The position numbers and the translations under genes are program-made. From the NCBI GenBank assembly GCA_035637315.1, contig DASPXK010000294.1, positions 1 to 50,824 on the forward strand: DNA of 50,824 bases. Direction: 5' to 3'. Shown piece after piece: positions 1,008 through 50,699 of the stretch (within the stretch, counting starts at the first letter, position 1; each line of letters begins with the position of its first letter). The DNA comes from Chloroflexota bacterium. GTDB lineage: Bacteria; Chloroflexota; UBA6077; JACCZL01. Below the pieces are notes generated by a model, which ran no database searches, was not told the DNA's origin, and saw only the letters and a program-made list of their open reading frames with translations.

Positions 1008-1126
1008 CGAGTAGGAAGTCGCGAGTAGGAAGTCGCGAGTAGGAAGTCGCGAGTAGGGAGTCGCGAGGGAGGAGCAACGCGTCGAACGCGCTCGTCACTC
1101 GCCACTGGCTACTCGCTGCTCGTTGT
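1008..1126. repeat. Stop-bearing tandem repeat hairpin A: 14-bp unit CGAGTAGGAAGTCG x4.7 (1008-1073), with a partly complementary heptamer tract (CTCGTCA CTCGCCA CTGGCTA CTCGCTG...) at 1093-1126
   Basis: Read directly. TAG recurs at 1012, 1026, 1040 and 1054 (14-nt spacing, so all three plus-strand frames). The right arm gives TAG and TGA on the minus strand. Lies between the recombinase stop and the PNP start. Confidence 0.85.
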
Positions 1127-2068
1127 TCAGCGTCGGCTAGCTGCGGTGAGGGTCCTGGTCCGTCCGATCTTGACCTGCGTGTAGATCTGGGTGGTGGAGA
1201 TGTTGGCGTGGCCGAGCAGCTCGCGCAGGCGAGGTAGGGTAAAGCCATCGCTCAGGCGGTGAGTCGCGAAGGAGTGGCGGAGTGTGTGCGGTGTCACCTC
1301 AGCGCGAACCCCACTGTCTCGTGCGACTGACTTCATGATCAGCCAGAAACCCTGGCGAGTGAGTCGCTGGCCGCGATGATTCAAGAACAGGGCTGGCTGG
1401 GGTAGGCCTGACCGCAGCAGCGCTGGCCGCCCGCGGTCCAGGTAATCCTGGAGCGCCGCCCAGGCCCGTTCGTCCACGGGCAGTTGGCGCGCTCGAGCGC
1501 CTCGACCAATGCAGCGAACGGTCTGGCCCGCTGCATCGATGTCGGAGACGTCGAGGGAGACGAGCTCCGTGACGCGCATCCCAGTCGCGTACAGCAGATG
1601 CAGCATCGCCCTATCGCGCAGGCCCTCCGGTGTGGTCCGCTTGTCCGCCTGCCGGATGAGCAAATCCACATCGCCAACGGAGATCGCTCTAGGGAGCGGC
1701 TTCTTCACTTCGGGCGAGCCCAGCTCGGCCGTGGGGTTGTGGGAGATCACTCCCTGGCGAAGCAGGAACTGAAACAGGGACTTGACGGCCGCCATCTTTC
1801 GGGCGATGGTGGCCGCGGAGTAGCCCTTGTCCACGCGCAGATTCAAGAAGAAGCCTGCCACGGTCTCGCGGGACAGCTCGGACTGGCCGACCTGCCCGTT
1901 GCCGCTGCCAGTCAGATGGTGGACGCCGTTGCCAAGTGGGCCGGCGTGGCGACTGCTCAGATACGCCTCGAACTGGCGGAGATCGTTCTTGTACGCGGCC
2001 AGGGTGTTGGGGGACAGCCGACGTTCGGCAGCCAGAAACTCGAGGAACTCCTCGATCTTCTGTTTCAT
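1127..2068 (-). CDS. Tyrosine site-specific recombinase, XerC/XerD family
   Basis: 313 aa. N-terminal SAM-like region (FLEFLAAERRLSPNTLAAYKNDLRQF). C-terminal catalytic motifs HTLRHSFATH and LGHANISTTQIYTQV. Confidence 0.85.
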   Translation of the reverse strand: MKQKIEEFLEFLAAERRLSPNTLAAYKNDLRQFEAYLSSRHAGPLGNGVHHLTGSGNGQVGQSELSRETVAGFFLNLRVDKGYSAATIARKMAAVKSLFQFLLRQGVISHNPTAELGSPEVKKPLPRAISVGDVDLLIRQADKRTTPEGLRDRAMLHLLYATGMRVTELVSLDVSDIDAAGQTVRCIGRGARARQLPVDERAWAALQDYLDRGRPALLRSGLPQPALFLNHRGQRLTRQGFWLIMKSVARDSGVRAEVTPHTLRHSFATHRLSDGFTLPRLRELLGHANISTTQIYTQVKIGRTRTLTAASRR

Positions 2069-2163
2069 GGCCCGCCTCCTCAGCGTTCTGGCCAGGCTAG
2101 ACGCCCGACCAGAACTCGTTGTGAGTGTAACACAGGAAATTTCGACTCATCGCGGGTAGGCGA

Positions 2164-2697
2164 TCAGGGCCGGCGACCCGGCGTGGCGCGGCTGGGGGGA
2201 CGACCGCGCCCAAGCTGACGCTGAGCCTGGCGCGCCAGCTCTGGCGACCATTTCCAGACGTTGTAGTAGTGCGGCCGGCGATACTCCGGCGGCCCTTCCA
2301 CGAAAAACCCAGGGATGCTGTCCAGAATCTCGTTCCAGACCTCGGAGTCGCGGCGAACCACGGCCGTGGCCGCCAGCGGCGAGAGTGAACGCAGAAGCTC
2401 GCTCAGGAGATGCTTGACGATCCCAGCGTGAGGCGCCTCGCCCACGGACCCGACATCGCGAAGCGTCAACGTGTCGTCCACCCGCATGTGCCACTCGACG
2501 AATCCGCCGAGGACCCATGCCTTCTCGCGGGGGTCGTAGCGTTCGAGCAAGAGCAGCTCGTCGCGCTGCTGGGCTGTCCGCAGGCTGCCGCTCCGAGTTC
2601 GACCGTCGGGATGCGCCAGGCTGACCTTCATCGCCGCCTGCAGCGGCTTGAGGTCTTCCGGCTCGGCGGAACGTATCCGAAAGGCGAGCTCGTCCAC
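2164..2697 (-). CDS. Hypothetical protein (possibly GNAT-fold acetyltransferase-like)
   Basis: 177-aa ORF with protein-like composition (MDELAFRIRSAEPEDLKPLQ...). No firm motif recognised. Competing overlapping ORFs are Arg/Pro/Gly-rich GC artefacts. Confidence 0.5.
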   Translation of the reverse strand: MDELAFRIRSAEPEDLKPLQAAMKVSLAHPDGRTRSGSLRTAQQRDELLLLERYDPREKAWVLGGFVEWHMRVDDTLTLRDVGSVGEAPHAGIVKHLLSELLRSLSPLAATAVVRRDSEVWNEILDSIPGFFVEGPPEYRRPHYYNVWKWSPELARQAQRQLGRGRPPSRATPGRRP

Positions 2698-2784
2698 GCG
2701 GCCGCATCCACTGCCCGGGTATTTCGACCCAGGTGGAGAATAGGGTAGCGATTGCGCTCCAGGTGGGCAAGCTGGCCAATTCGC

Positions 2785-3000
2785 TCAGCCCCGAACGGCG
2801 TCGTTCGCGTACAGCCACTTCAAGAAGATGAGCTGGCCGACCTGCCTGGCGGTGAAGCCGGACGACTCGAGCGCGTAGCGCCACTTGTACAGAGTCAAGC
2901 GGCGGACATCCTCTGACGTGAGCGGGTGTCGAGTGGCGGCCCGAGGCGCCGGGCGCGATTGACCAATTGAGCGGCGTGGGACCGGACGATGATCTGTCAT
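2785..3000 (-). CDS. Small hypothetical protein (71 aa)
   Basis: ORF 2785..3180 trimmed to the ATG at 2998-3000 (MTDHRPVP...LTLYKWRYALESSGFTARQVGQLIFLKWLYANDAVRG). The C-terminal half looks like genuine protein; the upstream part is Arg/Pro-rich. Confidence 0.4.
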   Translation of the reverse strand: MTDHRPVPRRSIGQSRPAPRAATRHPLTSEDVRRLTLYKWRYALESSGFTARQVGQLIFLKWLYANDAVRG

Positions 3001-3298
3001 AGGCTGGTCTCCCTGAACGCAAGGGGCGACGGCCGGGACGGGGGCACGCACTTCTGAAACCTGCCCCGACCGCCGCCGCTTGTCCATCCTCCTGACACGG
3101 GGGGTCTTTTTGGCACACCCCCGAGGGCTGGCCAAGCCGCGCGACTGCCAGACTGCCTCCCCACGGCCTGGTCGCGGCACACGCGAGACTCCTCACCCCC
3201 CTGTCTCACGCGACAGCGGCCGCACCGCGAACGAGCCAAAGCTCGGCGTTGACCTGGGCACGCCAGCGACGGCTAGGCGGAAACGGCTCAGCCGAGAC

Positions 3299-3320
3299 GG
3301 CACGGCATGAATGACGTGCC
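3299..3320. repeat. GGCACG-N10-CGTGCC palindromic element, related to the palindromes at 53-68 and 114-133
   Basis: Read directly: GGCACGGCATGAATGACGTGCC shares the GGCACGGCATG core with 114-133. Lies in a roughly 400-nt noncoding gap. Confidence 0.5.
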
Positions 3321-3407
3321 TGCTGGCTCCCTTGAGGCTGCTATCTTACGTCTGGGAGCGTTACAACGACGTCTCGGGGCCTGGCGATTCTGTCACGAAA
3401 ACATAAC

Positions 3408-3490
3408 GAGTGGGCAGTGAGCAGTGGGCAGTGCACGCACTTGGCCGCTGCCTACTGCCCACTGGCTACTGGCTACTGGCTACTGGCTGG
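3408..3490. repeat. Stop-bearing heptamer hairpin B: (AGTGGGC/AGTGAGC) tract 3408-3437 opposite a (CTACTGC CCACTGG CTACTGG x3) tract 3448-3490
   Basis: Read directly. The plus-strand CTA (TAG on the minus strand) occurs at 3452, 3466, 3473 and 3480. The last is the response regulator stop codon. Confidence 0.85.
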
Positions 3491-4208
3491 TGGCCGGCTC
3501 GGTTTCGGGCAGCTTGTTAAGGGTGTAGCCGATGCCCGGGCGAGTGGTGACGAAGCGCGGATTGCTGGGGTCGAGCTCGATCTTACCGCGCAAACGGGCA
3601 ATGTTGACTCGCAGCAGGTGGGCCTCATCCTTGTATTCGGGCCCCCAGACCTTGGTCAGCAGGTCAGCCTGGGTGACCACGCGGCCGGCATTGCGCGCCA
3701 AGAAACTCACTATCCTGAACTCCGTAGGCGTCAGATTGACCTGCTGGCCGCTGACGCGCGCGACTTGTTGCGCGAAGTCCACCTCCAGCTCGCCGGTCTG
3801 GAAGACCGGCTGGCCTTGGTCAGGGCTGGAGAATTGGGCGCGGCGGAGCGCAGCCCGCACGCGCGCCAGCAGCTCCATTGAGCCAAACGGCTTGGTCAGA
3901 TAGTCGTCCGCACCGGCGTCCAGGCCCGATACCTTGTCCTCCTCTGCCTCGCGAGCAGTCAGGATGATGATCGGCACGGTCGAGAACTCGCGCACCCGGC
4001 GACAGACGTCGCGGCCGTCCATGCCAGGCATCATGATGTCCAGCAGCAGCAGGTCTAGCTCCTCGGCCTCGGCCATTTTGAGCGCGTTGTGGCCGTCCAT
4101 GGCGGTCAGCACGCGGTAGCCGTTCAGCTCCAAGTTGCGCTGGACCAGCTTGAGCAGGCGCGGATCGTCATCCGCTACCAGCACCGAAGTCTTGCGGGTC
4201 GTATTCAT
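3480..4208 (-). CDS. OmpR/PhoB-family response regulator (REC plus winged-helix)
   Basis: 242 aa. Receiver motifs VLVADDD, LLLLDIMMPGMDG and KPF. C-terminal trans_reg_C-like segment LTPTEFRIVSFLARNAG...GIGYTL. Confidence 0.9.
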   Translation of the reverse strand: MNTTRKTSVLVADDDPRLLKLVQRNLELNGYRVLTAMDGHNALKMAEAEELDLLLLDIMMPGMDGRDVCRRVREFSTVPIIILTAREAEEDKVSGLDAGADDYLTKPFGSMELLARVRAALRRAQFSSPDQGQPVFQTGELEVDFAQQVARVSGQQVNLTPTEFRIVSFLARNAGRVVTQADLLTKVWGPEYKDEAHLLRVNIARLRGKIELDPSNPRFVTTRPGIGYTLNKLPETEPATSQ

Positions 4209-4231
4209 CGATCCTCCATCTCGTTCAAGCC

Positions 4232-4329
4232 GTCAGCTGTCAGCCTTCAGCTGTCAGCCTTCAGCTGTCAGCCTTCAGCTATCAGCTATCGCCTGCACGT
4301 GCTGACGGCTGACTGCTGACCGCTGATCG
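4232..4329. repeat. Stop-bearing heptamer hairpin C: (TCAGCTG/TCAGCCT) x8 at 4232-4290 opposite (CTGACGG CTGACTG CTGACCG CTGATCG) at 4301-4329
   Basis: Read directly. TCA (minus-strand TGA) recurs every 7 nt from 4233 to 4282, eight times. TGA on the plus strand occurs at 4303, 4310, 4317 and 4324. The kinase stop (4282-4284) is the first of the minus-strand TGAs. Confidence 0.9.
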
Positions 4330-7300
4330 CTCGTAAAGTGGCAGCGTGAAGAAGAAGGTGCTGCCCTTGCCCAGCCGACTCTCTGCCCAGATCTTGCCTC
4401 CGTGTGCCTCGACCAGGCGCTGGCAGATCGCCAGGCCGAGGCCAGTCCCTCCCACTCGCTTCGAGATCTCGCCCTCCACTCGGTGAAAGCGGTCGAAGAC
4501 TCGGTTCAGGTCACGGGTTGGGATGCCCACCCCCTGGTCGGTCACGCTCACGACCAGCGTGTCGCCCTGGATCTGCCCCCCGACCACGATCTCGCCGCCG
4601 TCGGGCGAGTACTTGACCGCATTCTCCAGGAGGTTCGTGGCGACCTGCGCGATGCGGCGCGGGTCAGCCTCCACGAGCTGATCACAGCTCCAGGCCATCA
4701 TGATCCGGTGTCGGTCGGTCAGGCGTTGGACCCGCTGGGCACAGGATTCGACGACCTCGGCCATCTGGATCGGCTCGCGGTCCATCTTCAGAACGCCCGC
4801 CTCCAGGCGCGACATGTCGAGCAGGTTTCGGATCATCTCGTCCAGTCGATCGCTCTCACTGTCGATGGTCTCCAGGAACTCGCGGGTCTCGGCGCGACTG
4901 AGCACCCTGTCGTGCTCGAGCAGCGTGGTCGCGTAGCCCTTGATCGAGCTGAGGGGGGTGCGCAGCTCGTGGGAGACGGTTGAGAGCAGCTCGGTCTTGA
5001 GCCGATCGATCTTCTTGAGTGCAGCGACTTCGCGGGCGTGCTCCGCGAGCTGGAGGTTGTTGATTGCTAGCGCGACGTGGTTGGCCAGGACCACGACGAT
5101 CCGCTCGTCCGCGTCGCTGAAGGGACGTTCGGCCCGCTCCAACTCGACCACGCCAATCGCGCCATCCTTGAGCGGCAGCGGGATAGCCATCAGCGCCGGA
5201 GGAGGCACGATGTGCACCGAGCGCTCAGGAGAGCGGCCGTCCGCCGGCTGCTCGTCAATTAGCATCGAGTCGCCCGGCCCGCTTCGTGCGGGATGCCCGG
5301 ACCGAAAGGCCAGACTGGCCAGCGACGAGGGCAGCAGCCCTGGCGGCCGGCTGGCCCGGGGCACGGTGCTGCCGCGCAGTCCGTTTCCTCCGGTCGGCGC
5401 CCGGACCCGCTCGTCCGTCACTACCGGCCGAAGGACCGGCGAGTTTGCCTCGCACAGCAGGACCGAGGCCCGATCGTAGCCGATCCGCTCGCGGATGATT
5501 TCGAGTAGGCGCTGACCGATCTCTTCCGGAGTGACCACGGTGTTGGCCGCGTTCGCGATCTCGTACAGCGCCTTGGTCTCTTCGAGCTGGCTGCGGACCT
5601 CGCCGTACAGACGCGCGCTCTCGAGCGCAACCACGGCCTGGGCGGCCAACAGCTCGGCCTTGGCGAGATCTCGGCCCTGGAAGGCCTCGGGGTGGCGCGA
5701 GCTACCAAATATGATTGCGCCGATGGTCTCGCGGTGGCGGACGAGTGGCACGGCCAGCAGGCATTGCTGGCGCAGCATGACGGTGAGGCGCGGGTTGCTC
5801 TGCCGGGCCGTGGCGGCATGCTGGACGATCTCGGGCGCCTGCGTGCGCACGACTCTGGCGGTGAGGGAGATCGGATCATTCAGCGACAGTCGCCTGTCTT
5901 GTAAGATGTCGCGGCGGACGCCGGCCGACTCAACCAGGCGCAGCTCACCAGCCTCCTGGTCGACCAGCCACACCACGGCCGAGTCAGCGCGCAGGGCGGC
6001 ACGACCCTGGCGGCAGACTAAATCCATGACGCGCTCCATCTCCAGGCTAGCCTGGAGGTTGAGCGCCAGTCCGAGGTCTCGCAGGCGCTCTTCAGCGTAG
6101 CCGGCCGTCTCCAGGCGCCGCAGCAGCCAGCCGTTCTCGGCAAGACTGAGGATCAAGCGGATTACCAGCAGCACAGACAGACCGAGCGTCCCGACGAACA
6201 GCTCCGTCTTGGGAGCGTTTTCGGACAGGAGCTGCGCGGCGAGCGCCAAGCACACCAGGCCCCCGGCCGCCGTGGCTGGTACCAGCCGGAGTCGGCTGTC
6301 GTCGCGGGCGTCTCCCTCGGGCGGGCTGTGAGCCAGCTCGGCGTCGGGCGCGAGGGCCACGACCAGCCCGCCCAGTGCGACTCCGGCGAGCCCGACGGTC
6401 CAGAAAGGCTGGCCCAGCCCGAGCTGCCAGCCCGGCAGGTGGAGCAGTCGCCCGGCGTGGAGGGCGGCACCGGCCGCGACAGCCAGTGTCCCCCATGCCA
6501 GCAGTCCCTGGGGTGACGCTGGGCGCGCCAACGCCGTTCGTCTGGTGACCCAGACCATGGCGTAGGCTGTGGCGACGTACGCCGACAGGTACAGCAGACC
6601 GCCCGGCGTGAGCGACTCTTCGCGCGGACCCAGGACGTCGGTGTGAATCGTGATCAGCAGGCCCATGACGGGCGGCGCCAGGCTCAGGATCGCGACGTCG
6701 AGCAGGAGCTTCGCCCGCCGCGGGTTCACCCGCTCGCCATCCAGGCGGGCTAGCGCAGCGACCAGGAAGAACACGACGGCCGCCACGAAGCCAGCGTCAT
6801 CGCGGCCGAACGCCGCTGGCCCGGCTGCCGGGTCGAAGCTCTGGTAGCCGCGTGCCAGCATGCCGACCAGGATCAAGGCCGCCGCCGCGCCGGCCAGCAG
6901 CCAGGTGAGGCGAGTTCGCGCGCGCGCTGCGTGCGCGGCGCAGACGCCGGCCATGGCCGCGCCGAGCGCGACCACCAGGCAGGCGCCCCAGGCGATCGGC
7001 CGAAGGCCTGGCAAGAGCGCCAGGAGCGCTTCCAGCCCCAGCACGACGGCGATGGCGACGCCAACGACCAGGCCGGCCCTTGGCTGCGCCGAGGCTCGCC
7101 CGGCCGCCAGGCGGTCCGCGGCAATCGCCTGGACCGGAAGATGGGCGGACTCGCGCGCCAAGCGTGCCGGCGGGCTACCCTTGGCGCGGAGATCGGCGAT
7201 GCCCGTTGGGACGAGTGGGCGAACGCGCCCGGCGACGCCACGGCGGCCGCGCCGCGCCGGGGCGTGCGCCACGCTCACGACGTGCACCTGCGAGGCCAGC

Positions 7301-7374: not shown

Positions 7375-7451
7375 TTCGGGCGCTTTTCGGGAACGGTCGG
7401 GGGTCTGGGCCCGAGGCCAGCGGCCAGGCTTCAGGGAATTGGAGCACTCGC

Positions 7452-7476
7452 CTCTGACTCCCGACCCCTGACCCCT
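7452..7476. repeat. Heptamer tract D (CTCTGAC TCCCGAC CCCTGAC CCCTCTAG)
   Basis: Read directly. Plus-strand TGA, TGA and TAG just 3' of the diiron gene stop (7477). Partly complementary to GGTCGGGGGTCTGGG at about 7397-7411. Confidence 0.6.
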
Positions 7477-8574
7477 CTAGAAGACGGGAATGATATCCGT
7501 CGGGTCGACGTCGGTCACTTCGTGACCACTGATTCCGACCTCGGGCATCGCCGGGAACGCGATCCCGTAGCGTTCGACGACCGCCTTGACCTTGAACATC
7601 GCCTGGCGCCAGACCTCACGCTTGACGTCGAGAGTGGCCACCCCTAGTCCAGCCTGGCGAGCGATCGATTCCAGCTCACGATGGGTCGCCAGGAACTCGG
7701 GCGGTAACTGCCAGAACTGCTCCGGCGGCTCGTACAGGATCATCGACAGGAAGACGAAGCCGGCTCGAAGCTGCTTAGTGATCATGGCCTTCTCGTCGTC
7801 GGACAGGCTGGGGAACGACTTCTCGAGCATGGCCAGGCAGATGGCCATGTGGCGGGCCTCGTCTTTGCCGACGTTGCGCAGGGCGTGCTGGAAGACGGGA
7901 TGGGTTGCCTGCTTGCTCATCGTGTGAAAGAGCGTTGTCGCCGCGACCTCGCCCATCATGAAACTGGAGAAGAGGACCGACAGCGGGTATTTGTTCAGCG
8001 CCTGGCTGTAGCCTTTCCAGTAGCGGGCCCCGTTGTAGTACAGCCAGCGCAGGTTCCTGAGTGCCAGAGCCTCCAGCTCGGTCTCCGGCTCCCAGCCCTC
8101 GGTTGGCGTGGCCGACCAGAGTCGGCTCACCGTCCGTTGGCAGACCTCCTCGTGGTTGACCTCGTCGCGCGTGATCGAGAAGAACGCCTTGCGGACCGGG
8201 TCCTCCTCATGGTGCTCGTACGAGTGGATCATCGCTTTGGCGAAAACAGGCGGGCCCGAGCCGTCGAAATTCGCCAGCACGGCGTACCAGTACATCACGG
8301 CCAGGCGCTGCTCTCGCGTGAAGTCGAGCGGGTCTAGCTCGGCCCAGGGCAGGTCGGCGGGATTCCAGACCTCGCGCTTGGCGCGCTCGTACAAGCTGGC
8401 AAGCTTGCCCTCCTGGTCGCCGTGCCACTCCATGGGGTAGATGTTCGGCTGGTCGATCGACGGGACGTCGGCGAGGAGATCCCGAACGAGCTGGCGGATG
8501 TTCTCGTGCTGCGTAACCACGATCGGTACCCAACGTAGAGGCGGACCCACGTGTCCGCCCTGGGGCGCGCACAC
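7477..8574 (-). CDS. Ferritin-like diiron-carboxylate protein (AurF/diiron-oxygenase-like; exact family unresolved)
   Basis: 365-aa ORF. Two EXXH motifs (RDEVNHEE and KDEARHMA); the second follows GEVAAT by 30 residues, the classic E-x29-E-x2-H spacing. The start may be an internal GTG (IVVTQHEN), because the first roughly 20 codons are GC-biased. Confidence 0.65.
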   Translation of the reverse strand: MCAPQGGHVGPPLRWVPIVVTQHENIRQLVRDLLADVPSIDQPNIYPMEWHGDQEGKLASLYERAKREVWNPADLPWAELDPLDFTREQRLAVMYWYAVLANFDGSGPPVFAKAMIHSYEHHEEDPVRKAFFSITRDEVNHEEVCQRTVSRLWSATPTEGWEPETELEALALRNLRWLYYNGARYWKGYSQALNKYPLSVLFSSFMMGEVAATTLFHTMSKQATHPVFQHALRNVGKDEARHMAICLAMLEKSFPSLSDDEKAMITKQLRAGFVFLSMILYEPPEQFWQLPPEFLATHRELESIARQAGLGVATLDVKREVWRQAMFKVKAVVERYGIAFPAMPEVGISGHEVTDVDPTDIIPVF

Positions 8575-8594
8575 GGTGCGCGCCTACAATCATA

Positions 8595-8625
8595 CTGGCT
8601 ACTGATTACTGACTACTTCGGTCAG
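8595..8625. repeat. Heptamer tract E (CTGGCTA CTGATTA CTGACTA CTTCGGT)
   Basis: Read directly. The minus strand reads GTAGTCA GTAATCA GTAGCCA, giving TAG, TAA and TAG 7 nt apart. The E1-alpha stop (8599-8601) is one of them, and its tail TEVVSNQ is repeat-encoded. Confidence 0.75.
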
Positions 8626-20538: not shown

Positions 20539-21095
20539 CTAGTCTCGCGCCAGCCGCTCGCGGACGAGGGGCTCTGCCATCAGCAGCGCGAGGGCGCTCT
20601 GACCCTCGTTGATTCGGCCATCGCGAGCCCGCGCGAACGCCTCTTTGGGATCGAGCAGGACAACTTTCATGAGCTCGGTCGGCTCGCGATTGGTCGCGCC
20701 CAGTCGACGTCGAGCGCCAGGAAGGCATGGGCCCGGTGCGAGGCTTGTCCGGGCGAGGGGTAGAACGAGCCCAGGAAGATCAGCTCGCCGCAGCTACCGC
20801 CCACCTCCTCGGCAAGCTCGCGGCGGGCGGTCGCTTCGATAGACTCGCCGTCCGGCGAGCCGGCCGGAACCTCCCACGCCCAGTCACGGGCGGGGTGGCG
20901 GTACTGGCGGATGAGCACGACCTGACGATCCTTTGTCAGCGGTACCACGAACACCGCTGCAGGCGCCTCGAGATACGTGTAGGTGATCTCGTCGCCAGTG
21001 TGCAGTTTGAGCCGGTCCTCCCGCACATCCCGCCATGGGCTGCGCCGCAGATATGCGGTGTCGAGGACCGTCCAGGGCTCGGGCTGATCGTTCAA
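20539..21095 (-). pseudogene. NUDIX hydrolase (ADP-ribose/ADP-sugar pyrophosphatase-like) interrupted by a 1-nt frame disruption near 20690-20710
   Basis: Frame 1 (21095..20667) carries the Nudix box GSPDGESIEATARRELAEEVGG and ends prematurely after FLALDVDWA. A different frame continues with NREPTELMKVVLLDPKEAFARARDGRINEGQSALALLMAEPLVRERLARD to a TAG at 20539-20541, the expected Nudix C-terminus. Joined length is about 185 aa. Confidence 0.6.
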
Positions 21096-21157
21096 CGTTC
21101 AACCTCGACGTTCAACGATCGGGACCCACGTTGAACACTGAACGCCCAACGTTGAAC
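21089..21157. repeat. Stop-bearing heptamer hairpin F: (GTTCAAC)n 21089-21117 opposite (GTTGAAC)n 21129-21157
   Basis: Read directly. TCA occurs at 21092, 21099 and 21112. TGA occurs at 21132, 21139 and 21153. Lies between the aconitase stop and the Nudix TTG start, which sits inside the left arm. Confidence 0.85.
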
Positions 21158-40254: not shown

Positions 40255-40331
40255 GCGAGGAATGAGGAATGAGGTATGAGGCACGAGTCGAACTTGGCTC
40301 GTCGCTCATCCCTCATTCCTCATCCCTCGTC
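40255..40331. repeat. Stop-bearing heptamer hairpin G: (GAATGAG)n 40255-40287 opposite (CTCATCC/CTCATTC)n 40298-40331; probable terminator of the SH3b gene
   Basis: Read directly. TGA occurs at 40263, 40270 and 40277 (three frames). TCA occurs at 40306, 40313 and 40320. The loop is 10 nt. Confidence 0.85.
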
Positions 40332-40360
40332 TTGAAATCGGCGCGCCGAACCCCTACGCT
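40332..40360 (+). promoter_or_regulatory. Candidate sigma-70 promoter TTGAAA-N17-TACGCT for livHMGF
   Basis: Read directly between hairpin G and the livH GTG start at 40397. Weak -10 element. Confidence 0.3.
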
Positions 40361-40396
40361 CTAATCTCTGATCCTAATCAGCCTGGAGCTCCGGCG

Positions 40397-41362: not shown

Positions 41363-42631
41363 ATGCCCGAACAGGCGAGTCGCGAGCCTGCCCTCGAGCG
41401 AAGCGAAGGGCCTGCCCTCGAGCGAAGCGAAGGGTCGCGAGTCGCGAGTCAACAGGCGGGCGGCTCGGTCGCGGCGGTCAGCCGCGATGAGTTGTTGTCC
41501 CGCCGCGCGCAGTCAGTCCAGCGCTGGACCGAGCTGACCGAGCGGCGACGAAACCAGGTCCTGTTCGGGATCTTCGCCGCGTTCGTGCTGCTGTATCCGC
41601 TGCTAGACCGCACACTCGGCTGGAACCGCATGGGCAGTATGAACCCGATCCTGATCTTCGTGCTTCTCGCGCTCGGGCTCAACATCGTGGTCGGGTTTGC
41701 CGGCCTGCTCGACCTCGGGTACGCGGCGTTCTTCGCCATTGGCGGGTACACCGCCGCGTTCCTGACGGCACCTCAGAGCCCGCTACCGTTCCGCACCGAC
41801 TTCTGGCTGGCCCTGATCGTGAGCTTCTTCGTGGCGGCGGTCTTTGGCGTCATCCTGGGCATGCCCACGCTGAGGCTGCGCGGAGACTACCTGGCGATCG
41901 TCACACTGGCATTCGGCGAAATCGTTCCGCGCGCCTTTCTGAACCTCGAGAAGCTCACCAACGGCTCCAAGGGCATGAACCCGATCGGCCGCCCACACGC
42001 GGCCCAATATGAGCTGCTCGCCTCTGATCAGGTTCCCTGGTACTACCTGATCGTCGCCATCAGTGCCTTCTCGGTCTTCGTCATCATGCGTCTGTACGAT
42101 TCTCGCCTCGGCCGTGCCTGGATGGCCATGCGTGAGGACGAGATCGCGGCCGCGAGTATGGGCATCGACCTGGTCAAGACCAAGCTGCTGGCCTTTTCCC
42201 TCGGAGCCTCGTTCTCCGGTTTTGGCGGCGCGCTGTACGCCTCGATGCTCCAGTTTATCGATCCGTTCCAGTTCGATTTCAGCATCTCGATCATGCTGCT
42301 CTCGATGATCATCCTGGGCGGGATTGGGAACATCTGGGGCGTGATGTTCGGCGGACTGCTGATGGGCGCCTTCAACTTCATCTGGGTCGAGACGGCCACT
42401 CCCTGGGTGCGCGGCTTCGGCTCGGCGCTCGGCTTGCCGTTCCTCGAGTCGGTCGATCTGTCGAACTCCAAGTTGATGCTGTTCGGTCTGGCCCTGGTGC
42501 TGATGATGCTGATTCGCCCCGAGGGGATCTTCCCAAGCGCCCAGCGAAGAGCCGAGCTCAAGGGCGCCAAGCCCGCTTCCGCCACGGCCGTAGCCGGCCT
42601 CGAGGAAACGCTCCACGACGCGCGGGCCTGA
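41363..42631 (+). CDS. livM: Branched-chain amino acid ABC transporter permease
   Basis: 422 aa. LGLNIVVGFAGLLDLGYAAFFAIGGY and GMPTLRLRGDYLAIVTLAFGEI. The N-terminal roughly 30 codons are a tandem repeat, so the true start is uncertain. Confidence 0.8.
   Translation: MPEQASREPALERSEGPALERSEGSRVASQQAGGSVAAVSRDELLSRRAQSVQRWTELTERRRNQVLFGIFAAFVLLYPLLDRTLGWNRMGSMNPILIFVLLALGLNIVVGFAGLLDLGYAAFFAIGGYTAAFLTAPQSPLPFRTDFWLALIVSFFVAAVFGVILGMPTLRLRGDYLAIVTLAFGEIVPRAFLNLEKLTNGSKGMNPIGRPHAAQYELLASDQVPWYYLIVAISAFSVFVIMRLYDSRLGRAWMAMREDEIAAASMGIDLVKTKLLAFSLGASFSGFGGALYASMLQFIDPFQFDFSISIMLLSMIILGGIGNIWGVMFGGLLMGAFNFIWVETATPWVRGFGSALGLPFLESVDLSNSKLMLFGLALVLMMLIRPEGIFPSAQRRAELKGAKPASATAVAGLEETLHDARA
41377..41450. 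repeat. 24-bp direct duplication (CCTGCCCTCGAGCGAAGCGAAGGG x2) flanked by GAGTCGC heptamers, inside the 5' end of livM
   Basis: Read directly. Translates in frame as EPALERSEG-PALERSEG-SRVASQ. Unlike the other tracts it contains no stop trinucleotides. Confidence 0.8.
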
Positions 42632-42633: not shown

Positions 42634-43407
42634 ATGGCGCTGATTCTGCAGGCGACGAAAGTCACTAAGCGGTTTGGGGGGCTAGTCGCGGTCAACGACC
42701 TCGACTTCACCATCGAAGAGCGCGCGATCGTGAGCCTGATCGGCCCGAACGGGGCCGGCAAAACCACTTTCTTCAACATGGTTGCCGGGCTGTATCGGAC
42801 GACGGCCGGTGAGATCGCCTTCCGCGGCCACCGCCTCGACGACGCCAAGCCGAACGAGATCACGGCTCTTGGCATCGCGCGAACGTTTCAGAACATCCGC
42901 CTTTTCAACAACATGAGCGCCCTGGACAACGTCCTGGTCGGCATGCATTGCCGGCTGAGGGGCACGGCGCTTGGGGCGGTGCTGCGAACTCCAGCCGTCG
43001 TGGCCGAGGAGCGCCGGGCTCGCGAACGAGCCGTCGAGCTGCTCGGTTTCGTGGGCTTGCCAGGCCGCGACGAGACGTGGGCCCGCTACCTTCCGTACGG
43101 AGACCAGCGGCGCCTGGAGATCGCCCGCGCCCTGGCCACCCAGCCGAGCCTGTTGCTCCTGGACGAGCCAACGGCCGGCATGAACCCTCAGGAGACCAAA
43201 GCCCTGACCGATCTGATCCGTCGCCTGCGCGCCGACCTCGGCCTGACGATCCTGCTGATCGAGCACCACATGCGAGTGGTGATGGACATCTCAGACCGGG
43301 TAACCGTCCTGGACTACGGCCTCAAGATCTCCGAGGGCACCCCGCGCGAGATCCAGCACGACCCGAAAGTGATCGAAGCGTATCTCGGCCGCGCGGCCAC
43401 CGCCTAA
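42634..43407 (+). CDS. livG: Branched-chain amino acid ABC transporter ATP-binding protein
   Basis: 257 aa. Walker A GPNGAGKTT, signature YGDQRRLEIARAL, Walker B LLLLDEP. Confidence 0.9.
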   Translation: MALILQATKVTKRFGGLVAVNDLDFTIEERAIVSLIGPNGAGKTTFFNMVAGLYRTTAGEIAFRGHRLDDAKPNEITALGIARTFQNIRLFNNMSALDNVLVGMHCRLRGTALGAVLRTPAVVAEERRARERAVELLGFVGLPGRDETWARYLPYGDQRRLEIARALATQPSLLLLDEPTAGMNPQETKALTDLIRRLRADLGLTILLIEHHMRVVMDISDRVTVLDYGLKISEGTPREIQHDPKVIEAYLGRAATA

Positions 43408-43408
43408 C

Positions 43409-43498
43409 GGAATGAAAAATCGAGAGTGAAGAATGAAGAATACTTCTTGCACGTCGTCGTCCCTCATTCTTCATTCTTCACTCTTCACTCTTCATTCC
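43409..43498. repeat. Stop-bearing heptamer hairpin I: (GAATGAA/GAGTGAA)n 43409-43443 opposite (TTCATTC/TTCACTC)n 43463-43498, between livG and livF
   Basis: Read directly. TGA occurs at 43413, 43427 and 43434. TCA recurs every 7 nt at 43464, 43471, 43478, 43485 and 43492. The track ORF 43426.. reads through it, but livF homology begins at MATLEVQDV (43504). Confidence 0.85.
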
Positions 43499-43503
43499 GT
43501 CTA

Positions 43504-44217
43504 ATGGCTACGCTCGAGGTCCAGGATGTCCATACCTACTATGGCAACATCCACGCCTTGCGCGGCGTGTCGCTGTCGGTCAAAGACGGCGAGATCGTCA
43601 CGCTCATCGGTGCCAACGGGGCCGGCAAGAGCACGACTCTGCGGACGATCTCTGGCATCTTGCAGCCCCGCGAGGGGCAAGTCGTGCTCGACGGACAGCC
43701 GATTACCGGACTACCGCCCCACGAGATCGTCGCCCGCGGGGTATGCCAGGTCCCGGAGGGCCGCCGGATCTTTTCGCGCATGTCGGTACTCGAGAACCTG
43801 GAGATGGGTGCCTTCGCCCGCAAGGACCGGGCGCAGGTGCCATCCGACATCGAGCGCGTATTCGAGTTGTTTCCGCGCCTGAAAGAGCGGATCAGCCAGA
43901 AAGGCGGCACGCTCTCAGGCGGCGAGCAGCAGATGCTGGCGATCGGGCGAGCCCTCATGTCCAGGCCCAAGATCCTGCTGCTGGATGAGCCTTCGATGGG
44001 CCTGTCGCCGATCCTGGTTGAAACGATCTTCCAGACGATCCAGGAGATCAATCAGCAGGGGGTCACCGTGCTGCTCGTCGAGCAGAACGCGCTCATGGCA
44101 CTCCAGGTGGCGAACCGCGGCTTCGTGCTCGAAACCGGCACGATCGTCCTAGACGACACGGCCGCCAAGCTGCGCGAGAACGAGACCGTCCAGAAGGCGT
44201 ATCTGGGCATCGAGTGA
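43504..44217 (+). CDS. livF: Branched-chain amino acid ABC transporter ATP-binding protein
   Basis: 237 aa from ATG 43504. Walker A GANGAGKST, signature LSGGEQQMLAIGRAL, Walker B ILLLDEPS. Confidence 0.9.
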   Translation: MATLEVQDVHTYYGNIHALRGVSLSVKDGEIVTLIGANGAGKSTTLRTISGILQPREGQVVLDGQPITGLPPHEIVARGVCQVPEGRRIFSRMSVLENLEMGAFARKDRAQVPSDIERVFELFPRLKERISQKGGTLSGGEQQMLAIGRALMSRPKILLLDEPSMGLSPILVETIFQTIQEINQQGVTVLLVEQNALMALQVANRGFVLETGTIVLDDTAAKLRENETVQKAYLGIE

Positions 44218-44263: not shown

Positions 44264-44527
44264 TTATCGCAGGCTGGGTCGCCCATGCCCGAAAAGCCGG
44301 GCAAGCAGTTCCTCCCGGCTCACGCCGAAGTGCTCGCCAACGTCGGCGAGGATCCCGGCCAGGGTTCCGATGCGCAGCGGGCTGTGCTGGGGGACGGTGA
44401 TGTGGTGCTCGCCCTGCTCCGTCGTGGTCAGGCGGAGGTGGCTCCCGGTCTGACGAGTGACGCGGTAGCCGAGCGCGCTGAGCGCTCGGGCGAGTTCCCT
44501 TCCTGACAGGTCGCGAGGAAGCCTCAC
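44264..44527 (-). CDS. hicA: HicA-family type II toxin (YcfA-like mRNA interferase)
   Basis: 87 aa. LSGRELARALSALGYRVTRQTGSHLRL fits the HicA pattern. GTG start overlaps the hicB stop (GTGA). Confidence 0.75.
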   Translation of the reverse strand: MRLPRDLSGRELARALSALGYRVTRQTGSHLRLTTTEQGEHHITVPQHSPLRIGTLAGILADVGEHFGVSREELLARLFGHGRPSLR

Positions 44528-44730
44528 ATCGCGATCACTTCTTCTCGCACGAAGTGCAGCCGAATCACCTTCGGCCGTTCATCTTCCTCGAAGTGGCAAC
44601 GGACCGCGTCGCGGACCTGGACATGGAGGTCGCCCATGTCGTCGGCCTCCGTGAAGATCGAGGCGCCAAGCGCCCGAGCCGTGTAGCCTCCCTCGGCTGC
44701 CTCTTCTACGAGGAAGATCAATTCATTCAT
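44524..44730 (-). CDS. hicB: HicB-family antitoxin (UPF0150-like)
   Basis: 68 aa from ATG 44730 (MNELIFLVEEAAEGGYTARALGASIFTEADDMGDL...). Upstream of and overlapping hicA. Confidence 0.7.
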   Translation of the reverse strand: MNELIFLVEEAAEGGYTARALGASIFTEADDMGDLHVQVRDAVRCHFEEDERPKVIRLHFVREEVIAM

Positions 44731-44954
44731 CGCTTTAACCTCGATGCGGCATCGCTGTTCCATGGGCCTCGACGACCGACGCCCCGCGCCTTGAGAATAC
44801 CCGATTGGCCTGATTGTGGTACCTGATTGTGCTACGACGCCAGGCCCCAGCAACGAACTGCGGCCTGAGTCGAAAGCGTGGATCGACCGGCGCTGCGCCC
44901 GCCTATAATTGCTTATCCCAACGGAGGTTTGCTGGGGACGGCGGAGCGGACCAA

Positions 44955-46074
44955 ATGGCGGTCAAACAGAAAAAGTCGATTCGGTGCACTGAGCGGGCGG
45001 CGGCTACGAGCGCTGCAAAACCGCGTGCCTACCTGAGGCAATCCGACATTCCAAAGTTGACGCTTTCCGAAGCCCTGCGGCTCCCCCAGAGTCTCTACGA
45101 TGACTTCGCGGGGCGATCGGCCGCACCCCATCAACTCGCCATGGCCGTCGACATCTCTCCAACCAGTAGCGCCTGGGAGACCTGTGCGGTGCTGCCATTG
45201 CCTATGGCCTGACCGATGGTGGATCAAAGGCGACTGCCATCGCCCTCACCGACCTGGGGCGGCGGATGGTTGCGCCGACGGAGGAAGGGCAGGATGTGTC
45301 GGCAAGAGTGGACGCCGCCTTGAAGCCCTCGATCGCTGGGCGCTTCTTCGACCGGTACAACCGAGCCAAGTTTCCTCAGGAGCGGATCGCCAAGAACGTG
45401 CTAGCAGAGATGGGCGTGCCGGTGGACCGACTTGACAAGGTCCTCCAGATCCTCACGCGAAACGGCGAGTTCGTCGGCATCATACATCAGACGAAAACCG
45501 GCCCATTTGTTGCCACCGACACGCCCGCACAGCGAAGCGTTGGCCTCACAGCGTCGGATCTCTCCTTGGATAACGCCCAGGGCGACCCAGGTGCCCCCAC
45601 GCACGCCCCAGCGGTAACTGAGACGGCGGGAATGCCCATACAGAAGCGCGAGGCAAACCAGAGGGTCTTCATCACGCACGGTAAAAACAAGCAAGTGGTC
45701 GCGCAACTAAAGGAGCTACTGGCGTTTGGGAAATTTGATCCCGTGGTCGCCCAAGAGCACGAGACCACCTCAAAGCCGGTACCAGACAAGGTTCTGGATG
45801 ACATGCATACCTGCTTTGCAGGCATCATTCACGTCGCGGGCGAGGAGGAATTGTTCGACGGTTCAGGAAGCGTGCATCACAAAATCAACGAGAATGTCCT
45901 GATCGAGATAGGCGCCGCCATGGCGCTTTACGGAAGGAACTTATACTTCTCGTTCAGAAAGGCATCCATCTTCCGTCCAATCTGCAGGGGCTGTATGTGT
46001 GTTACTACGAAGGAGAGCACCTAGACTACGAAGCAACTATGAAGCTGCTCAAAGCTTTCAACGAATTTAGGTGA
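44955..46074 (+). pseudogene. TIR-like (CAP12/PCTIR-type 'nucleotide-binding protein containing TIR-like domain') gene with an uncharacterised N-terminal domain, broken by two 1-nt frame disruptions
   Basis: Three consecutive frames join sensibly. Join 1: ...ISPTSSAW | DLCGAAIAYGLTDGGSKATAIALTDLGRRMVAPTEEG..., near 45175-45180. Join 2: ...RVFITHGKNKQVVAQLKELLAFGKFDPVV...INENVLIEIGAAMALYGRN | LILLVQKGIHLPSNLQGLYVCYYEGEHLDYEATMKLLKAFNEFR*, near 45938-45942. The stop is at 46072-46074. The region has visibly lower GC. Confidence 0.6.
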
Positions 46075-46272: not shown

Positions 46273-47259
46273 CTATGACGCGAGCCGGAACCGCGGATCG
46301 AGCGTGTCGCGGAGCCAGTCGCCGAGCAGGTTGATGCTGAGGACGACCACGGTGATGGTGACGCCGGGGATGGTGGAGACCCACCAGGCGTTGCGGAGGT
46401 AGAGCTTGCCGTCGGCCAGCATGCCGCCCCAGGTCGGCGTAGGCGGCTGGATGCCGACGCCCAGAAAGCTCAGCGTCGCCTCGGCGATGATGACGGTCGC
46501 AACTTCCAGAGTGGCCAGCACGATGACCGGCGTCATGACGTTCGGCAGGACGTGGCGAAAGATGATCCGCGGGTCGCGCGCGCCGATCGCGTGGGCGGCG
46601 GCGATGAACTCCGTCTCTTTGACCGACAGCACGCGCCCGCGCACCACCCGCGCGTAGACGACCCACCCGGTCACGCCCAGGACCAGGACGACGTTGAAGG
46701 CGCTCGGCCCGAGGATGCCCACCAGAGCCAGGGCCAGCAGGATGGCCGGGAATGACAACTGGATATCGGCCACGCGCATGATCCCGTCACCCACACGCCC
46801 AGCGTAGAAGCCGGCCACCAACCCGGCCAGGACACCGATCAGAGCCGAGATTGCGACGGCTGTCAGCCCGACAGCCACGGAGATGCGAGCGCCGTAGATC
46901 AGGCGGCTCAGGATATCGCGGCCCTGCAGATCGGTACCGAGCAGATTGCGCTCATTGCCCGCCCAGAAGCCCGGCTTCAGGCTCTGGCCCGTTTCCTGGA
47001 GCGTGGGCTCGTATGGTGCGATGAGCGGCGCGGCGGCGGCCGCGGCGGCCACCACGATGAGGACGACCAGTCCGATCATCGCCGCCCGATTTCGCCGCAA
47101 CAGCTCGACCGCCCGCGACCGAAGGACCGAGGACTGAGGACTGAGGACTAAGTAGGGACGCGCCGGATCGAGGCCTGAGGGCTGGGCCGCGGGGACCCGG
47201 CTCGCGCGTCGGTCCCCCTGGTCAAACGGTGCCGGCCGCGACTGCGTCCCTTCTACCAC
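46273..47259 (-). CDS. Peptide/nickel ABC transporter permease (DppC/OppC type)
   Basis: Conserved core LGTDLQGRDILSRLIYGARISV and EFIAAAHAIGA. The maximal ORF starts at GTG 47259, but its first roughly 53 codons cover hairpin J. TTG 47100 or ATG 47079 are alternative starts. Confidence 0.75.
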   Translation of the reverse strand: MVEGTQSRPAPFDQGDRRASRVPAAQPSGLDPARPYLVLSPQSSVLRSRAVELLRRNRAAMIGLVVLIVVAAAAAAAPLIAPYEPTLQETGQSLKPGFWAGNERNLLGTDLQGRDILSRLIYGARISVAVGLTAVAISALIGVLAGLVAGFYAGRVGDGIMRVADIQLSFPAILLALALVGILGPSAFNVVLVLGVTGWVVYARVVRGRVLSVKETEFIAAAHAIGARDPRIIFRHVLPNVMTPVIVLATLEVATVIIAEATLSFLGVGIQPPTPTWGGMLADGKLYLRNAWWVSTIPGVTITVVVLSINLLGDWLRDTLDPRFRLAS

Positions 47260-47285
47260 CCCTCAGTCCTCAGTCCTCAGTCCTG
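47121..47285. repeat. Stop-bearing heptamer hairpin J: (GAGGACT)3 at 47121-47152 and (AGTCCTC)3 at 47261-47285, flanking a roughly 108-nt GC-rich structured core
   Basis: Read directly. The stem extends through GTAGGGACGC / GCGTCCCTTCTAC. There is an inner hairpin GGGGACC-N12-GGTCCCC. The right arm gives three minus-strand TGAs immediately after the dppB-type TAA stop (47286-47288). Confidence 0.8.
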
Positions 47286-48203
47286 TTATTGCCGCCTGAT
47301 CCGTGGGTCGAGGAAGGCGTAGAGGACGTCGACCAGCAGGTTCATGGCTACGAAGACGGTCGCGAAGAAGAGCGTGGCACCCTGGATCAGGGGCAGGTCG
47401 CGGTCGTAGATCGCGCGAACGGTCAACAGCCCCAGGCCAGGCCAGGCGAAGACGCTCTCGGTCACCAGCGCGCCGCCCAGGAGGGTCGCGAACTGGAGGC
47501 CGGCCACCGTGATAATGGGAATCCAAGCGTTTCGAAGGCCGTGCGCGTAGACCACCACGCGTTCGGCCAAACCCTTGGCTCGCGCCGTTCGCAAGTAGTC
47601 CTGGCCCATCTCGTCGAGCAGCGACGAACGGGTCAGCCGAGTGAGTGTCGCCATCGCGGCCGTCCCCAGCGTGACGCTCGGCAGCGCGAGCTGCCTCCAA
47701 TCGCCCCGCCCGGACGGAGGCACCCAGCCGAGCTGGACGGCGAAGATCAGGATCAGCAGCAGCCCGAGCCAGAACACGGGCATCGAACGGCCGCTGAGCG
47801 CCAGGACCGTGGCCAGGTTGTCCCAGACCGAGTACGGCCGAATCGCCGAGAACACGCCGACGGGGATCGCCACCGCCAGCGCGAACAGCATCGCCAGCAC
47901 GGCCAGCTCCGTCGTCGCGCGCAGCCGCTCGCCGATCAATTTGTCGACCGGCTGGCTGTGTTTCATGGAGGTCCCAAGATCGCCGCGGACGACTCGAGCA
48001 ATGAAGCGCCCGTACTGCATTGGCAGCGGATCGTCCAGCCCCCAGTACGCGCGGGTCTGGCTGATCTGTTCCGGCGAAGCGTCGAACGGGAGCATCAGCT
48101 TGATCGGATCGCCGCTCAGATGGACAAGCATGAAGGCCACCAGCGAAACGCCGAGCATGACGAAGACGCTCTGGACCAACCGGCGCAGGATGAAGGTGGT
48201 CAC
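47286..48203 (-). CDS. Peptide/nickel ABC transporter permease (DppB/OppB type)
   Basis: 305 aa. MTTFILRRLVQSVFVMLGVSLVAFML... and DYLRTARAKGL. GTG start overlaps the cyclase stop (GTGA). Confidence 0.85.
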   Translation of the reverse strand: MTTFILRRLVQSVFVMLGVSLVAFMLVHLSGDPIKLMLPFDASPEQISQTRAYWGLDDPLPMQYGRFIARVVRGDLGTSMKHSQPVDKLIGERLRATTELAVLAMLFALAVAIPVGVFSAIRPYSVWDNLATVLALSGRSMPVFWLGLLLILIFAVQLGWVPPSGRGDWRQLALPSVTLGTAAMATLTRLTRSSLLDEMGQDYLRTARAKGLAERVVVYAHGLRNAWIPIITVAGLQFATLLGGALVTESVFAWPGLGLLTVRAIYDRDLPLIQGATLFFATVFVAMNLLVDVLYAFLDPRIRRQ

Positions 48204-50290: not shown

Positions 50291-50314
50291 CGCCCTCCTC
50301 CCTCATAGCCTCCG

Positions 50315-50527
50315 TCAGGTGCGCTGCCGCTCGTCCTGTTCAGGCACGAGCGACTCGGCGATGATCGCCAGCGCCAGTCGGTGCACGAGGGCCGTCAGGC
50401 GCGGGTCCACGTCGCTCCGGACGTATGGGTTTGCCCCGAGCTCGCGAAGCCGCTCTCGCTGCTCCAGGAGCCCGTGACGCTCCGCCAGGGCGTCCAGGGC
50501 TGGCAGGAGCCGGTCGGTTGCCTCCAT
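50315..50527 (-). CDS. Small helical hypothetical protein (70 aa)
   Basis: ATG 50527 has GAGGAG 7 nt upstream. MEATDRLLPALDALAERHGLLEQRERLRELGANPYV.... Lies between the binding-protein gene and the cyclase. Confidence 0.5.
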   Translation of the reverse strand: MEATDRLLPALDALAERHGLLEQRERLRELGANPYVRSDVDPRLTALVHRLALAIIAESLVPEQDERQRT

Positions 50528-50668
50528 GAACTGCTCCTCGACGCCGCCCGGGTCCACGCTCGCACCTCCGGCTCCTGGCCGCCCGACTGGTTGCTGAGGT
50601 GTCGTCAGTCCGGCCAGAGTCTAGGGCACAGCGGCCCGGTGCTGGCCAGGCAGCATCGTCCTGATCGC

Positions 50669-50699
50669 AGGCCCCTGGCCCCTGACCCTGACCCCTGAC
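50669..50699. repeat. Heptamer tract K (CCCCTGG CCCCTGA CCCTGAC CCCTGAC), same unit as tract D
   Basis: Read directly. Three plus-strand TGAs lie just 3' of the binding-protein stop at 50702-50704. Confidence 0.65.

Follow-up and report, generated by a model that had tools for sequence, protein, structure and literature searches.

The question raised by the stretch of DNA analysed here is why ten of its gene junctions are filled with tracts of tandem 7-nt units, most of them paired into long inverted repeats. The stretch (the window) comprises 50,824 nt of a Chloroflexota bacterium (contig DASPXK010000294.1 of assembly GCA_035637315.1); it has a G+C content of 66%, and 88.5% of it is coding according to a gene model made for the window. 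The first-pass annotation of the sequence had read the tracts, labelled A to G and I to K, as dedicated elements combining an all-frame translation stop with a hairpin that terminates transcription or protects mRNA ends. The results instead point to heptanucleotide simple sequence repeats (SSRs) of the short tandemly repeated repetitive (STRR) type, which are probably driven by slippage, tolerated only in spacers, and accompanied by side effects on mRNA like those of repetitive extragenic palindromic (REP) sequences.

Four sets of sequences were compared with the window. The same species is represented by 28 contigs retrieved through an exact-protein look-up from NCBI, JGI, ENA and Logan assemblies, which are 99-100% identical to the window (those named below are L081, L084-L089, L091-L094 and L097). 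Relatives with approximately 80% protein identity (L001, L003, L006 and L010) were compared at orthologous liv junctions, the phylum was sampled through 80 Chloroflexota loci totalling 1.3 Mb, and metagenome contigs L109-L228 make up the sample for the array CCAGTAG. Arrays were detected with Tandem Repeats Finder (TRF) against a null of 100 dinucleotide-preserving shuffles of the window. A partner arm was defined as a reverse-complement array no more than 250 nt away, with reversed sequence as the control, and the background for stop enrichment was GC-matched heptamers from outside open reading frames (ORFs).

All ten tracts exist as periodic arrays, TRF finding a period of 7 or 14 at each locus. 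Across the window there are 15 non-overlapping arrays of period 7 and four of period 14, compared with shuffle means of 1.84 and 0.47. The trinucleotide positions given in the annotation are exact (eight TCA spaced 7 nt apart from 4233 to 4282; TGA at 40263, 40270 and 40277; TCA from 43464 to 43492), and its placement of the tracts at gene junctions is borne out. Every tract either touches the upstream gene at its stop codon or overlaps that codon, nearly the whole spacer up to the next gene or promoter consists of tract, and the flanking genes are always co-directional, with the kinase-regulator, livG-livF and oppB-oppC junctions among those lying clearly within operons. Where any of the ten overlaps coding sequence it covers only the last 3-16 codons of an ORF, the rest being spacer. 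As had been noticed, the native stop codons of the response regulator (3480-3482), the histidine kinase (4282-4284) and the E1 dehydrogenase (8599-8601) lie inside repeat units, and the last 3-16 residues of these proteins are encoded by the repeats. The statement that the unit differs between loci holds insofar as no one simple mobile sequence is involved, but not every locus has a unit of its own, as a few families recur: CAGT(A/G)GC in tracts A, B and E, as well as at 17855-17960 of L084 and in L009; CCCCTGA in D and K; and GGAATGA/GAGGACT in G, I and J. Runs of GGG are absent from most window units and occur only in D and K (GGGGTCA, minus strand). The tracts are as follows.

Tract A, left arm at 1008-1067: a 14-mer, CGAGTAGGAAGTCG, in 4.3 copies (TRF score 113), ending 1 nt short of the minus-strand ATG (1004-1006) of a gene of the purine nucleoside phosphorylase family, whose start is fixed by 284-residue gene calls in L085-L089; right arm at 1091-1126: heptamers of the CTCGNCA type, touching the stop codon (1127-1129) of an XerC-like integrase gene; the hairpin contains inverted repeat I4 (27 nt, 81% complementary) and folds at -51.4 kcal/mol (z = -4.05).
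Tract B, left arm at 3409-3433: AGTGGGC/AGTGAGC in 3.6 copies; right arm at 3442-3488: CTGCCTA/CTGGCTA in six copies, holding the response regulator stop TAG (3480-3482, minus strand); hairpin of -39.7 kcal/mol (z = -2.4).
Tract C, left arm at 4228-4287: GTCAGCT/GTCAGCC (a 14-mer in 4.2 copies), holding the histidine kinase stop TGA (4282-4284, minus strand), with GGAGG and then the ATG of the regulator (4206-4208) after it; right arm at 4300-4331: GCTGACN in 4.4 copies, within the kinase ORF and coding for part of its 16-residue tail; hairpin of -59 kcal/mol (z = -6.5).
Tract D, 7452-7476: a single array of CTGACCC in 3.3 copies, touching the stop codon (7477-7479) of an AurF-like gene; no hairpin (z = +0.33).
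Tract E, 8593-8625: a single array of TACTGAC/CTGGCTA, holding the TAG with which the E1 dehydrogenase gene ends (8599-8601, minus strand) and encoding the E1 tail ...VVSNQ; no hairpin (z = +0.40).
Tract F, 21089-21157: a hairpin of CGTTCAA and GTTGAAC, between a stop codon at 21159-21161 and the next minus-strand gene; -31.3 kcal/mol (z = -3.1).
Tract G, 40256-40329, plus strand: a hairpin of GAGGAAT (3.6 copies) and CTCATCC (3.4 copies) with inverted repeat I2, beginning 4 nt past the stop codon (40249-40251) of an SH3-domain gene; -52.5 kcal/mol (z = -8.4).
Tract I, 43407-43500, plus strand: a hairpin of GAATGAA and TCATTCT with inverted repeat I1 (35 nt, 89%), filling the spacer between the livG stop (43405-43407) and the livF ATG (43504); -42 kcal/mol (z = -9.65).
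Tract J, 47123-47284, minus strand: arms of AGGACTG (3.9 copies, 47123-47152) and CCTCAGT (3.4 copies, 47261-47284) around a structured core of 108 nt, with inverted repeat I3 (96%), between the oppB stop (47286-47288) and oppC; -105.5 kcal/mol (z = -6.9).
Tract K, 50672-50703: a single array of CCCCTGA in 4.7 copies, 2 nt downstream of the TAG that closes a minus-strand gene coding for a solute-binding protein and extending beyond the window; no hairpin (z = +0.84).

One further array, missed in the first reading, consists of 2.4 copies of a 14-mer at 3268-3301 (GACGGCTAAGCCGA); it lies in a spacer of approximately 200 nt downstream of tract B and has no partner arm.

The tracts are hypervariable within the species. 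Compared with the window, the left arm of A is one 14-mer (14 nt) shorter in other same-species assemblies, the left arm of B is one 7-nt unit longer in four independent assemblies (L086 and L091-L093), the left arm of C lacks 28 nt, or two 14-mers, in five of the eight other assemblies, and J has one more CCTCAGT unit in three of six. All of these differences amount to whole units in one arm only, with flanks that are 99-100% identical, which is the signature of slipped-strand change in a simple sequence repeat; the restriction to a single arm also shows that exact pairing between arms is not maintained. Tracts D and E are identical in L084, K in L094 and G in five assemblies, and tract I shows substitutions inside the tract in L094 and L097.

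The same comparison addresses whether the tracts are real, absence from independently sequenced isolates having been named in the annotation as the mark of an assembly artefact. Nine of the ten (A-E, G, I, J and K) are present with identical flanks in between one and ten independent assemblies each, drawn from all four sources, and for these an artefact is refuted. No such check was possible for F, as neither of its flanking proteins has an exact match on record; the exact-protein look-up of LivM likewise returned no match on record. That contigs of several assemblies begin near tract C is the one feature in favour of an artefact, and that explanation now has next to no probability. Several contigs start approximately 120-190 nt upstream of the regulator gene, in the vicinity of C; starts close to C are seen in L086-L089, and L085 and L091 end near window positions 5388-5396; the contig ends near C and 5390 suggest that heptamer repeats fragment short-read metagenome assemblies. 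Two indels that are not multiples of 7 nt were also seen: L081 lacks approximately 133 bp inside livF (window 43629-43763), and L084 lacks approximately 106 bp in the histidine kinase gene (window 5390-5495), splitting its ORF. Neither has obvious flanking direct repeats, and both may be assembly errors.

Outside the species, the tracts are not found at the same positions. The nearest relatives of the window's LivM are from uncultured Chloroflexota genomes, with a best identity of 82%. The livG-livF spacer, 96 nt long and occupied by hairpin I in the window, is 4-8 nt long and free of repeats in L003 and L010, and no target-site duplication around I is evident from comparison with these empty orthologous junctions. 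Directly after hairpin G, upstream of livH, window positions 40333-40365 contain TTGAAA-N17-TACGCT, and TTGCA(A/T)-N17-TAC(G/C)CT precedes livH in L001, L010, L006 and L003, all four of which lack hairpin G; judged by sequence, these stretches look like a conserved liv promoter. Array counts per locus are 0-2 in L001, L006 and L010, the closest relatives, as against 19 in the window. As the orthologous junctions of relatives with approximately 80% identity are empty, the tracts are recent, lineage-specific gains. The annotation had proposed such a comparison to see whether period and stop content are conserved between orthologous junctions while the unit sequence drifts; neither position between relatives nor copy number within the species is constant, which is a poor fit to a precisely selected device.

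Repeats of the same kind are widespread. Among the Chloroflexota loci, 7 is the dominant non-triplet period, with 147 arrays against 59 of period 8 by TRF and 45 against 3 by a stricter detector, and 52 of 183 arrays have a reverse-complement partner, as opposed to 9 of 183 in the reversed-sequence control. Thermomicrobiales, Roseiflexaceae, Herpetosiphon and other groups have clear hairpins at junctions, and the livG-livF junction carries an independent hairpin in a Roseiflexaceae metagenome-assembled genome (L031, 5584-5639). The exact array of three CCAGTAG units found in tract B is present in at least 120 metagenome contigs ranging from 34% to 72% G+C, with a partner arm in 51 of 120 among the matches listed. 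A further junction hairpin of the same species lies just outside the window, between solute-binding-protein and oppB-like genes (L084, 17855-17960); its arms are strongly unequal, three units of a GGTAG type facing seven of CTACTGC.

The stop trinucleotides on which the original interpretation was based are enriched, yet form no obligatory part of the architecture. TGA or its complement TCA is found in 45% of Chloroflexota heptamer arrays, compared with 22% of the background heptamers (37% against 21% when only unique units are counted), and an unbiased scan ranks TGA as the top trinucleotide and GTCA/TGAC and CTGA/TCAG as the top tetranucleotides. For TAG the enrichment is not significant, and TAA is depleted. 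Nine of the ten window loci carry TGA; in the phylum-wide sample only 62% of the paired arrays outside the window have any stop in their unit and only 42% close all three frames on a strand, leaving 38% of hairpin arms stop-free, including clean junction hairpins at L031 5584-5639 (GTTGTGC) and in L079 and L037. Within the window, all three sense-strand frames are closed at B, C, E, F, G and J, and one frame is open in A and I. In D and K, TGA lies solely on the strand antisense to both flanking genes, and there is no sense-strand stop. Nor are stops concentrated in the arm beside the upstream gene (9 against 9; 15 against 10 when counted without regard to strand). TGA positions within arrays are about half as variable as other positions, a signal that is significant overall yet inconsistent between CTGA and non-CTGA arrays, absent for TAG, and drawn from arrays that are not independent. 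With TGA-rich units and a period of 7, which is not a multiple of three, a stop in every frame follows by arithmetic; it is a property of any non-triplet period.

The hairpins themselves are substantial. At seven of the ten loci (A, B, C, F, G, I and J) they are long and imperfect, with folding energies of -31 to -105 kcal/mol and z-scores of -2.4 to -9.7, and the longest inverted repeats of the window are heptamer hairpins. The complementary second tract reported for most loci is thus present at these seven; the single arrays D, E and K have neither a partner arm nor a fold (z about 0). The proposal that they terminate transcription is not supported. No T-run follows any tract, the terminator-like hits of an intrinsic-terminator scan coincide with none of them, and no tract has the short GC-rich stem-loop with an immediate U-tract that characterises a Rho-independent terminator. 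Several tracts are internal to operons (livG-livF, oppB-oppC and kinase-regulator). Rfam covariance models at gathering score had no match in the whole window. A comparison of sense and antisense folds, made as a test for RNA-level selection, revealed no consistent sense advantage, B and I being 10-14 kcal/mol more stable on the antisense strand. Together with the lack of conservation and the one-arm variation, these results argue against a precisely selected RNA element.

One regularity is strict enough to require separate consideration. A hairpin of the form X-loop-X' reads alike on both strands, so the order of its arms is intrinsic to it. In 27 of 29 heptamer hairpins, among them A, B, G, I and J of the window and others in L009, L021, L031, L037 and further loci, the 5' arm contains more G than C (p = 1.6e-6), the exceptions being C and F of the window. 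The 5' arm is biased towards GT against AC (23:4) and towards AG against CT (21:5), whereas ordinary inverted repeats in the same DNA are biased only 286:214, and among the matches listed the CCAGTAG arm comes first in all 51 paired CCAGTAG hairpins. This polarity is explained neither by stops (15:10), nor by thermodynamics, nor by a sense-strand G bias of single arrays (8:11). Two ideas fit and may account for it: either a G-rich nascent strand folds back, or selection acts against a C-rich, Rho-loading arm being exposed first. A more far-reaching proposal, advanced as a speculation with perhaps an outside chance of being correct, is that heptamer-armed hairpins constitute an intercistronic class spanning phyla (Chloroflexota, Xanthomonas and many uncultured bacteria from soils and sediments) in which the G-rich, AGT- or GT-bearing arm is always 5', the polarity would stem from G-rich fold-back or Rho-evasion selection, and the TGA core would belong to the preference of the generating mechanism or of a binding factor. 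The seeding of arrays from a stop codon plus Shine-Dalgarno sequence was also considered and rejected, as it predicted G-rich sense-strand single arrays, which were seen in 8 cases against 11. Two local configurations recall such seeding: a native GGAAATGA stands beside the GGAATGA units in tract G, and a two-unit GCTGACC GCTGATG lies at the livG stop of L001.

The mechanism proposed for the tracts is that replication slippage creates arrays and alters their length. Since a gene into which an array of 7-nt period expanded would be frameshifted, arrays would survive only in very short spacers and at the extreme 3' ends of ORFs, and such confinement would leave the tracts touching or overlapping stop codons. 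In this lineage most would have acquired a complementary second arm, probably by fold-back or template switching, or occasionally because an entire hairpin was copied. The stop property would then be at most a tolerance filter, an array encroaching on an ORF end being kept only if translation ends quickly; TGA-bearing arrays may be better tolerated at ORF ends (B, C and E), and the generating mechanism may also prefer such sequence. Once transcribed, the hairpins would probably behave by analogy with REP sequences and not as intrinsic terminators: they would hold up 3' exonucleases or serve as processing sites, and would modify translational coupling. Several observations sit uneasily with this explanation. 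Purely neutral slippage does not predict the two-fold excess of TGA/TCA and the top rank of TGA; TGA positions are less variable, although that signal differs between subsets and the arrays are not independent; the strict G-rich-first order calls for an extra mechanism or some selection; and certain hairpins are alike in their centres. Those of A and G align locally over 26 columns and have in common ACG(C/A)GTCGAAC..GCTCGTC(A/G)CTC, and approximately 10 metagenomic CCAGTAG hairpins with different flanks, among the matches listed, have one loop sequence in common, which suggests that some hairpins have spread as units.

Such spread is what would be expected of small non-autonomous mobile elements resembling REPINs or MITEs (miniature inverted-repeat transposable elements), with heptamer arrays as their arms, dispersed by a transposase such as RAYT and afterwards diverging through local slippage. 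The clean appearance of I as an insertion into a 9-nt spacer would agree with this, as would a fixed arm order like that of terminal inverted repeats and the enclosure of unrelated internal elements between the arms in J, L037 (4304-4485) and L041 (11997-12245). It is nonetheless unlikely, since I has no target-site duplication, 19 of 21 pairs of hairpin centres are at the null level with only A and G clearly similar, most loops and units differ by locus, D, E and K have a single arm, and polymorphism within the species consists entirely of unit steps and never of presence or absence. No transposase gene is linked to the tracts, the XerC-like integrase beside A being the only such neighbour, and no transposase family gave a Pfam match among the 20 window proteins scanned, approximately 60 kb of genome being covered. 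Classification as a MITE was rejected on the missing target-site duplication at I and the internal sequences that differ between loci, and as a REP or REPIN because no one palindromic sequence is common to the copies, units and loops differing by locus and only the A and G centres being similar.

The selected stop device of the original annotation, which would halt ribosomes in three frames on both strands, is less probable still. It could draw on the roughly two-fold enrichment of TGA, the six loci closing every sense frame, the three ORFs that end within arrays, and the reduced variability of TGA; these are outweighed by the stop-free paired arrays elsewhere, the sense-strand gaps at D, K, A and I, the behaviour of TAA and TAG, an arm order that tracks G and C instead of stops, the missing T-runs, the unconserved orthologous junctions, and length polymorphism in one arm, which weakens pairing. 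Upstream genes already have an in-frame stop, moreover, and would gain very little from closure of the other frames, and GGGAATC of Xanthomonas, the best-studied inverted heptamer family, is itself stop-free (PMC4692102). If the arrays were periodic targets of a protein that binds RNA or DNA, reads one trinucleotide in every 7 nt and regulates the neighbouring genes, this would explain why TGA, GTCA/TGAC and CTGA/TCAG are enriched across taxa and less variable than the remainder of the unit. Precedents for such reading exist in HutP, which recognises three UAG triplets with 4 nt between them, and in cold-shock proteins, which bind heptamers. The latter idea has been discussed for heptamer repeats (PMC4679880), and regulatory effects of such repeats have been claimed in Nostoc (bioRxiv 10.1101/2022.06.06.494920). 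A stable duplex with the partner arm ties up most arrays here, many have no such core, copy number is not constant and the flanking genes are functionally unrelated, making this very improbable. Slippage-driven repeats tolerated in spacers remain the most likely explanation.

Some other features of these spacers and genes were recorded. A second type of spacer element consists of palindromes, CCCTCACCCC...CCCTC and GGGGAGAGG...GGGGTGAGGG, at 15965-16175 and 20125-20255 of L084 and at the L037 and L041 positions given above, where they are nested between heptamer arms, like the 108-nt core in J. At 41386-41434 a 24-mer, GCCTGCCCTCGAGCGAAGCGAAGG, is perfectly duplicated in tandem within the livM ORF, at the 5' end, which is variable; the core of the 24-mer, GAGCGAAGCGAAGG, resembles an inverted element of the GTCATCCCGAGCGAAGCGAAGAATCTC type in an oppB-oppC-like spacer of L084 (18940-19260). 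A gene at 44264-46024 carries a TIR effector domain of the CAP12/Pycsar type (45266-46024) and has been called with 252, 278 or 356 residues across same-species assemblies.

The tracts do not reveal a new translation-stop device. They extend heptanucleotide repeats, a poorly understood class in bacteria, to the Chloroflexota, and indicate that the paired hairpin form is common among genomes from the environment; natural differences in length between strains, together with the strict arm order, provide handles on why 7-nt units predominate and how inverted pairs form. In practical terms, such tracts appear to break short-read assemblies, mislead gene callers (as at the oppC and livF starts and the kinase tail) and could serve as strain markers.

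Among known systems, the closest are the heptanucleotide long SSRs (LSSRs) and STRRs. Cyanobacterial STRR units reportedly include CCCCAGT, TTGGTCA and CAACAGT. As in the window, these repeats are tandem 7-nt units, mostly intergenic, in recurring families reminiscent of (C)TGA(C) or CAGT, which overlap ORF ends, close three frames and vary in length between strains. The window tracts likewise have three or more tandem copies above chance, lie mainly in non-coding DNA, change length by whole units and belong to unit families that recur across loci and taxa. Unlike the repeats of cyanobacteria and Beggiatoaceae, they occur in a high-GC soil Chloroflexota host, and most are paired into hairpins. 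Heptanucleotide repeats are described as the most abundant class of long SSR in most genomes, with polymerase slippage proposed as their origin (Mrazek 2007, as summarised in PMC4679880). The TAACTGA arrays of Beggiatoaceae and cyanobacteria are almost all direct repeats upstream of start codons; they close all frames and overlap ORF ends, which has been treated as a constraint on array location (PMC4679880). The view that no named family has this design hence does not stand, as STRR-type SSRs have already been described both as all-frame TGA heptamers (PMC4679880) and as inverted pairs (PMC4692102). The latter are the GGGAATC repeats of Xanthomonas, another high-GC genome, which has approximately 180 arrays, the majority of them flanked by genes running in the same direction (Rehm et al. 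2015, PMC4692102). They include 70-75 convergent pairs, with one array per strand and the G-rich arm first, which are capable of forming stem-loops, and array lengths differ between related strains and species (PMC4692102). The inverted convergent pairing and G-rich-first order are the same here (seven of ten window loci are paired, C and F being exceptions to the order), whereas Xanthomonas has one dominant, stop-free G-tract unit capable of forming a G-quadruplex and the window has many families, mostly without GGG and enriched in TGA, and does not share that G-quadruplex potential.

Rho-independent terminators resemble the tracts in placing a stable stem-loop just after a stop codon (as at G, B and K), but the tracts lack a U-tract, have far longer stems (24-35 bp) and in several cases lie within operons. 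REP sequences, which have an mRNA-stabilising role, and the related bacterial interspersed mosaic elements (BIMEs) and REPINs are similar in their location, in short spacers within operons and at the 3' ends of genes, in their form as imperfect hairpins, in their many copies per genome, and plausibly in their effects on mRNA decay and gene coupling. They differ in that each REP family has one conserved sequence and is tied to RAYT, as exemplified by the REPINs of proteobacteria (PMC3116915), while the arms here are tandem heptamers of locus-specific sequence that change by unit slippage. A literature search found no description of heptamer repeats in Chloroflexota and nothing relevant on the CCAGTAG array. 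The window tracts are thus of a kind already known, heptanucleotide SSRs and their inverted pairs, and what is new is their occurrence in the Chloroflexota.

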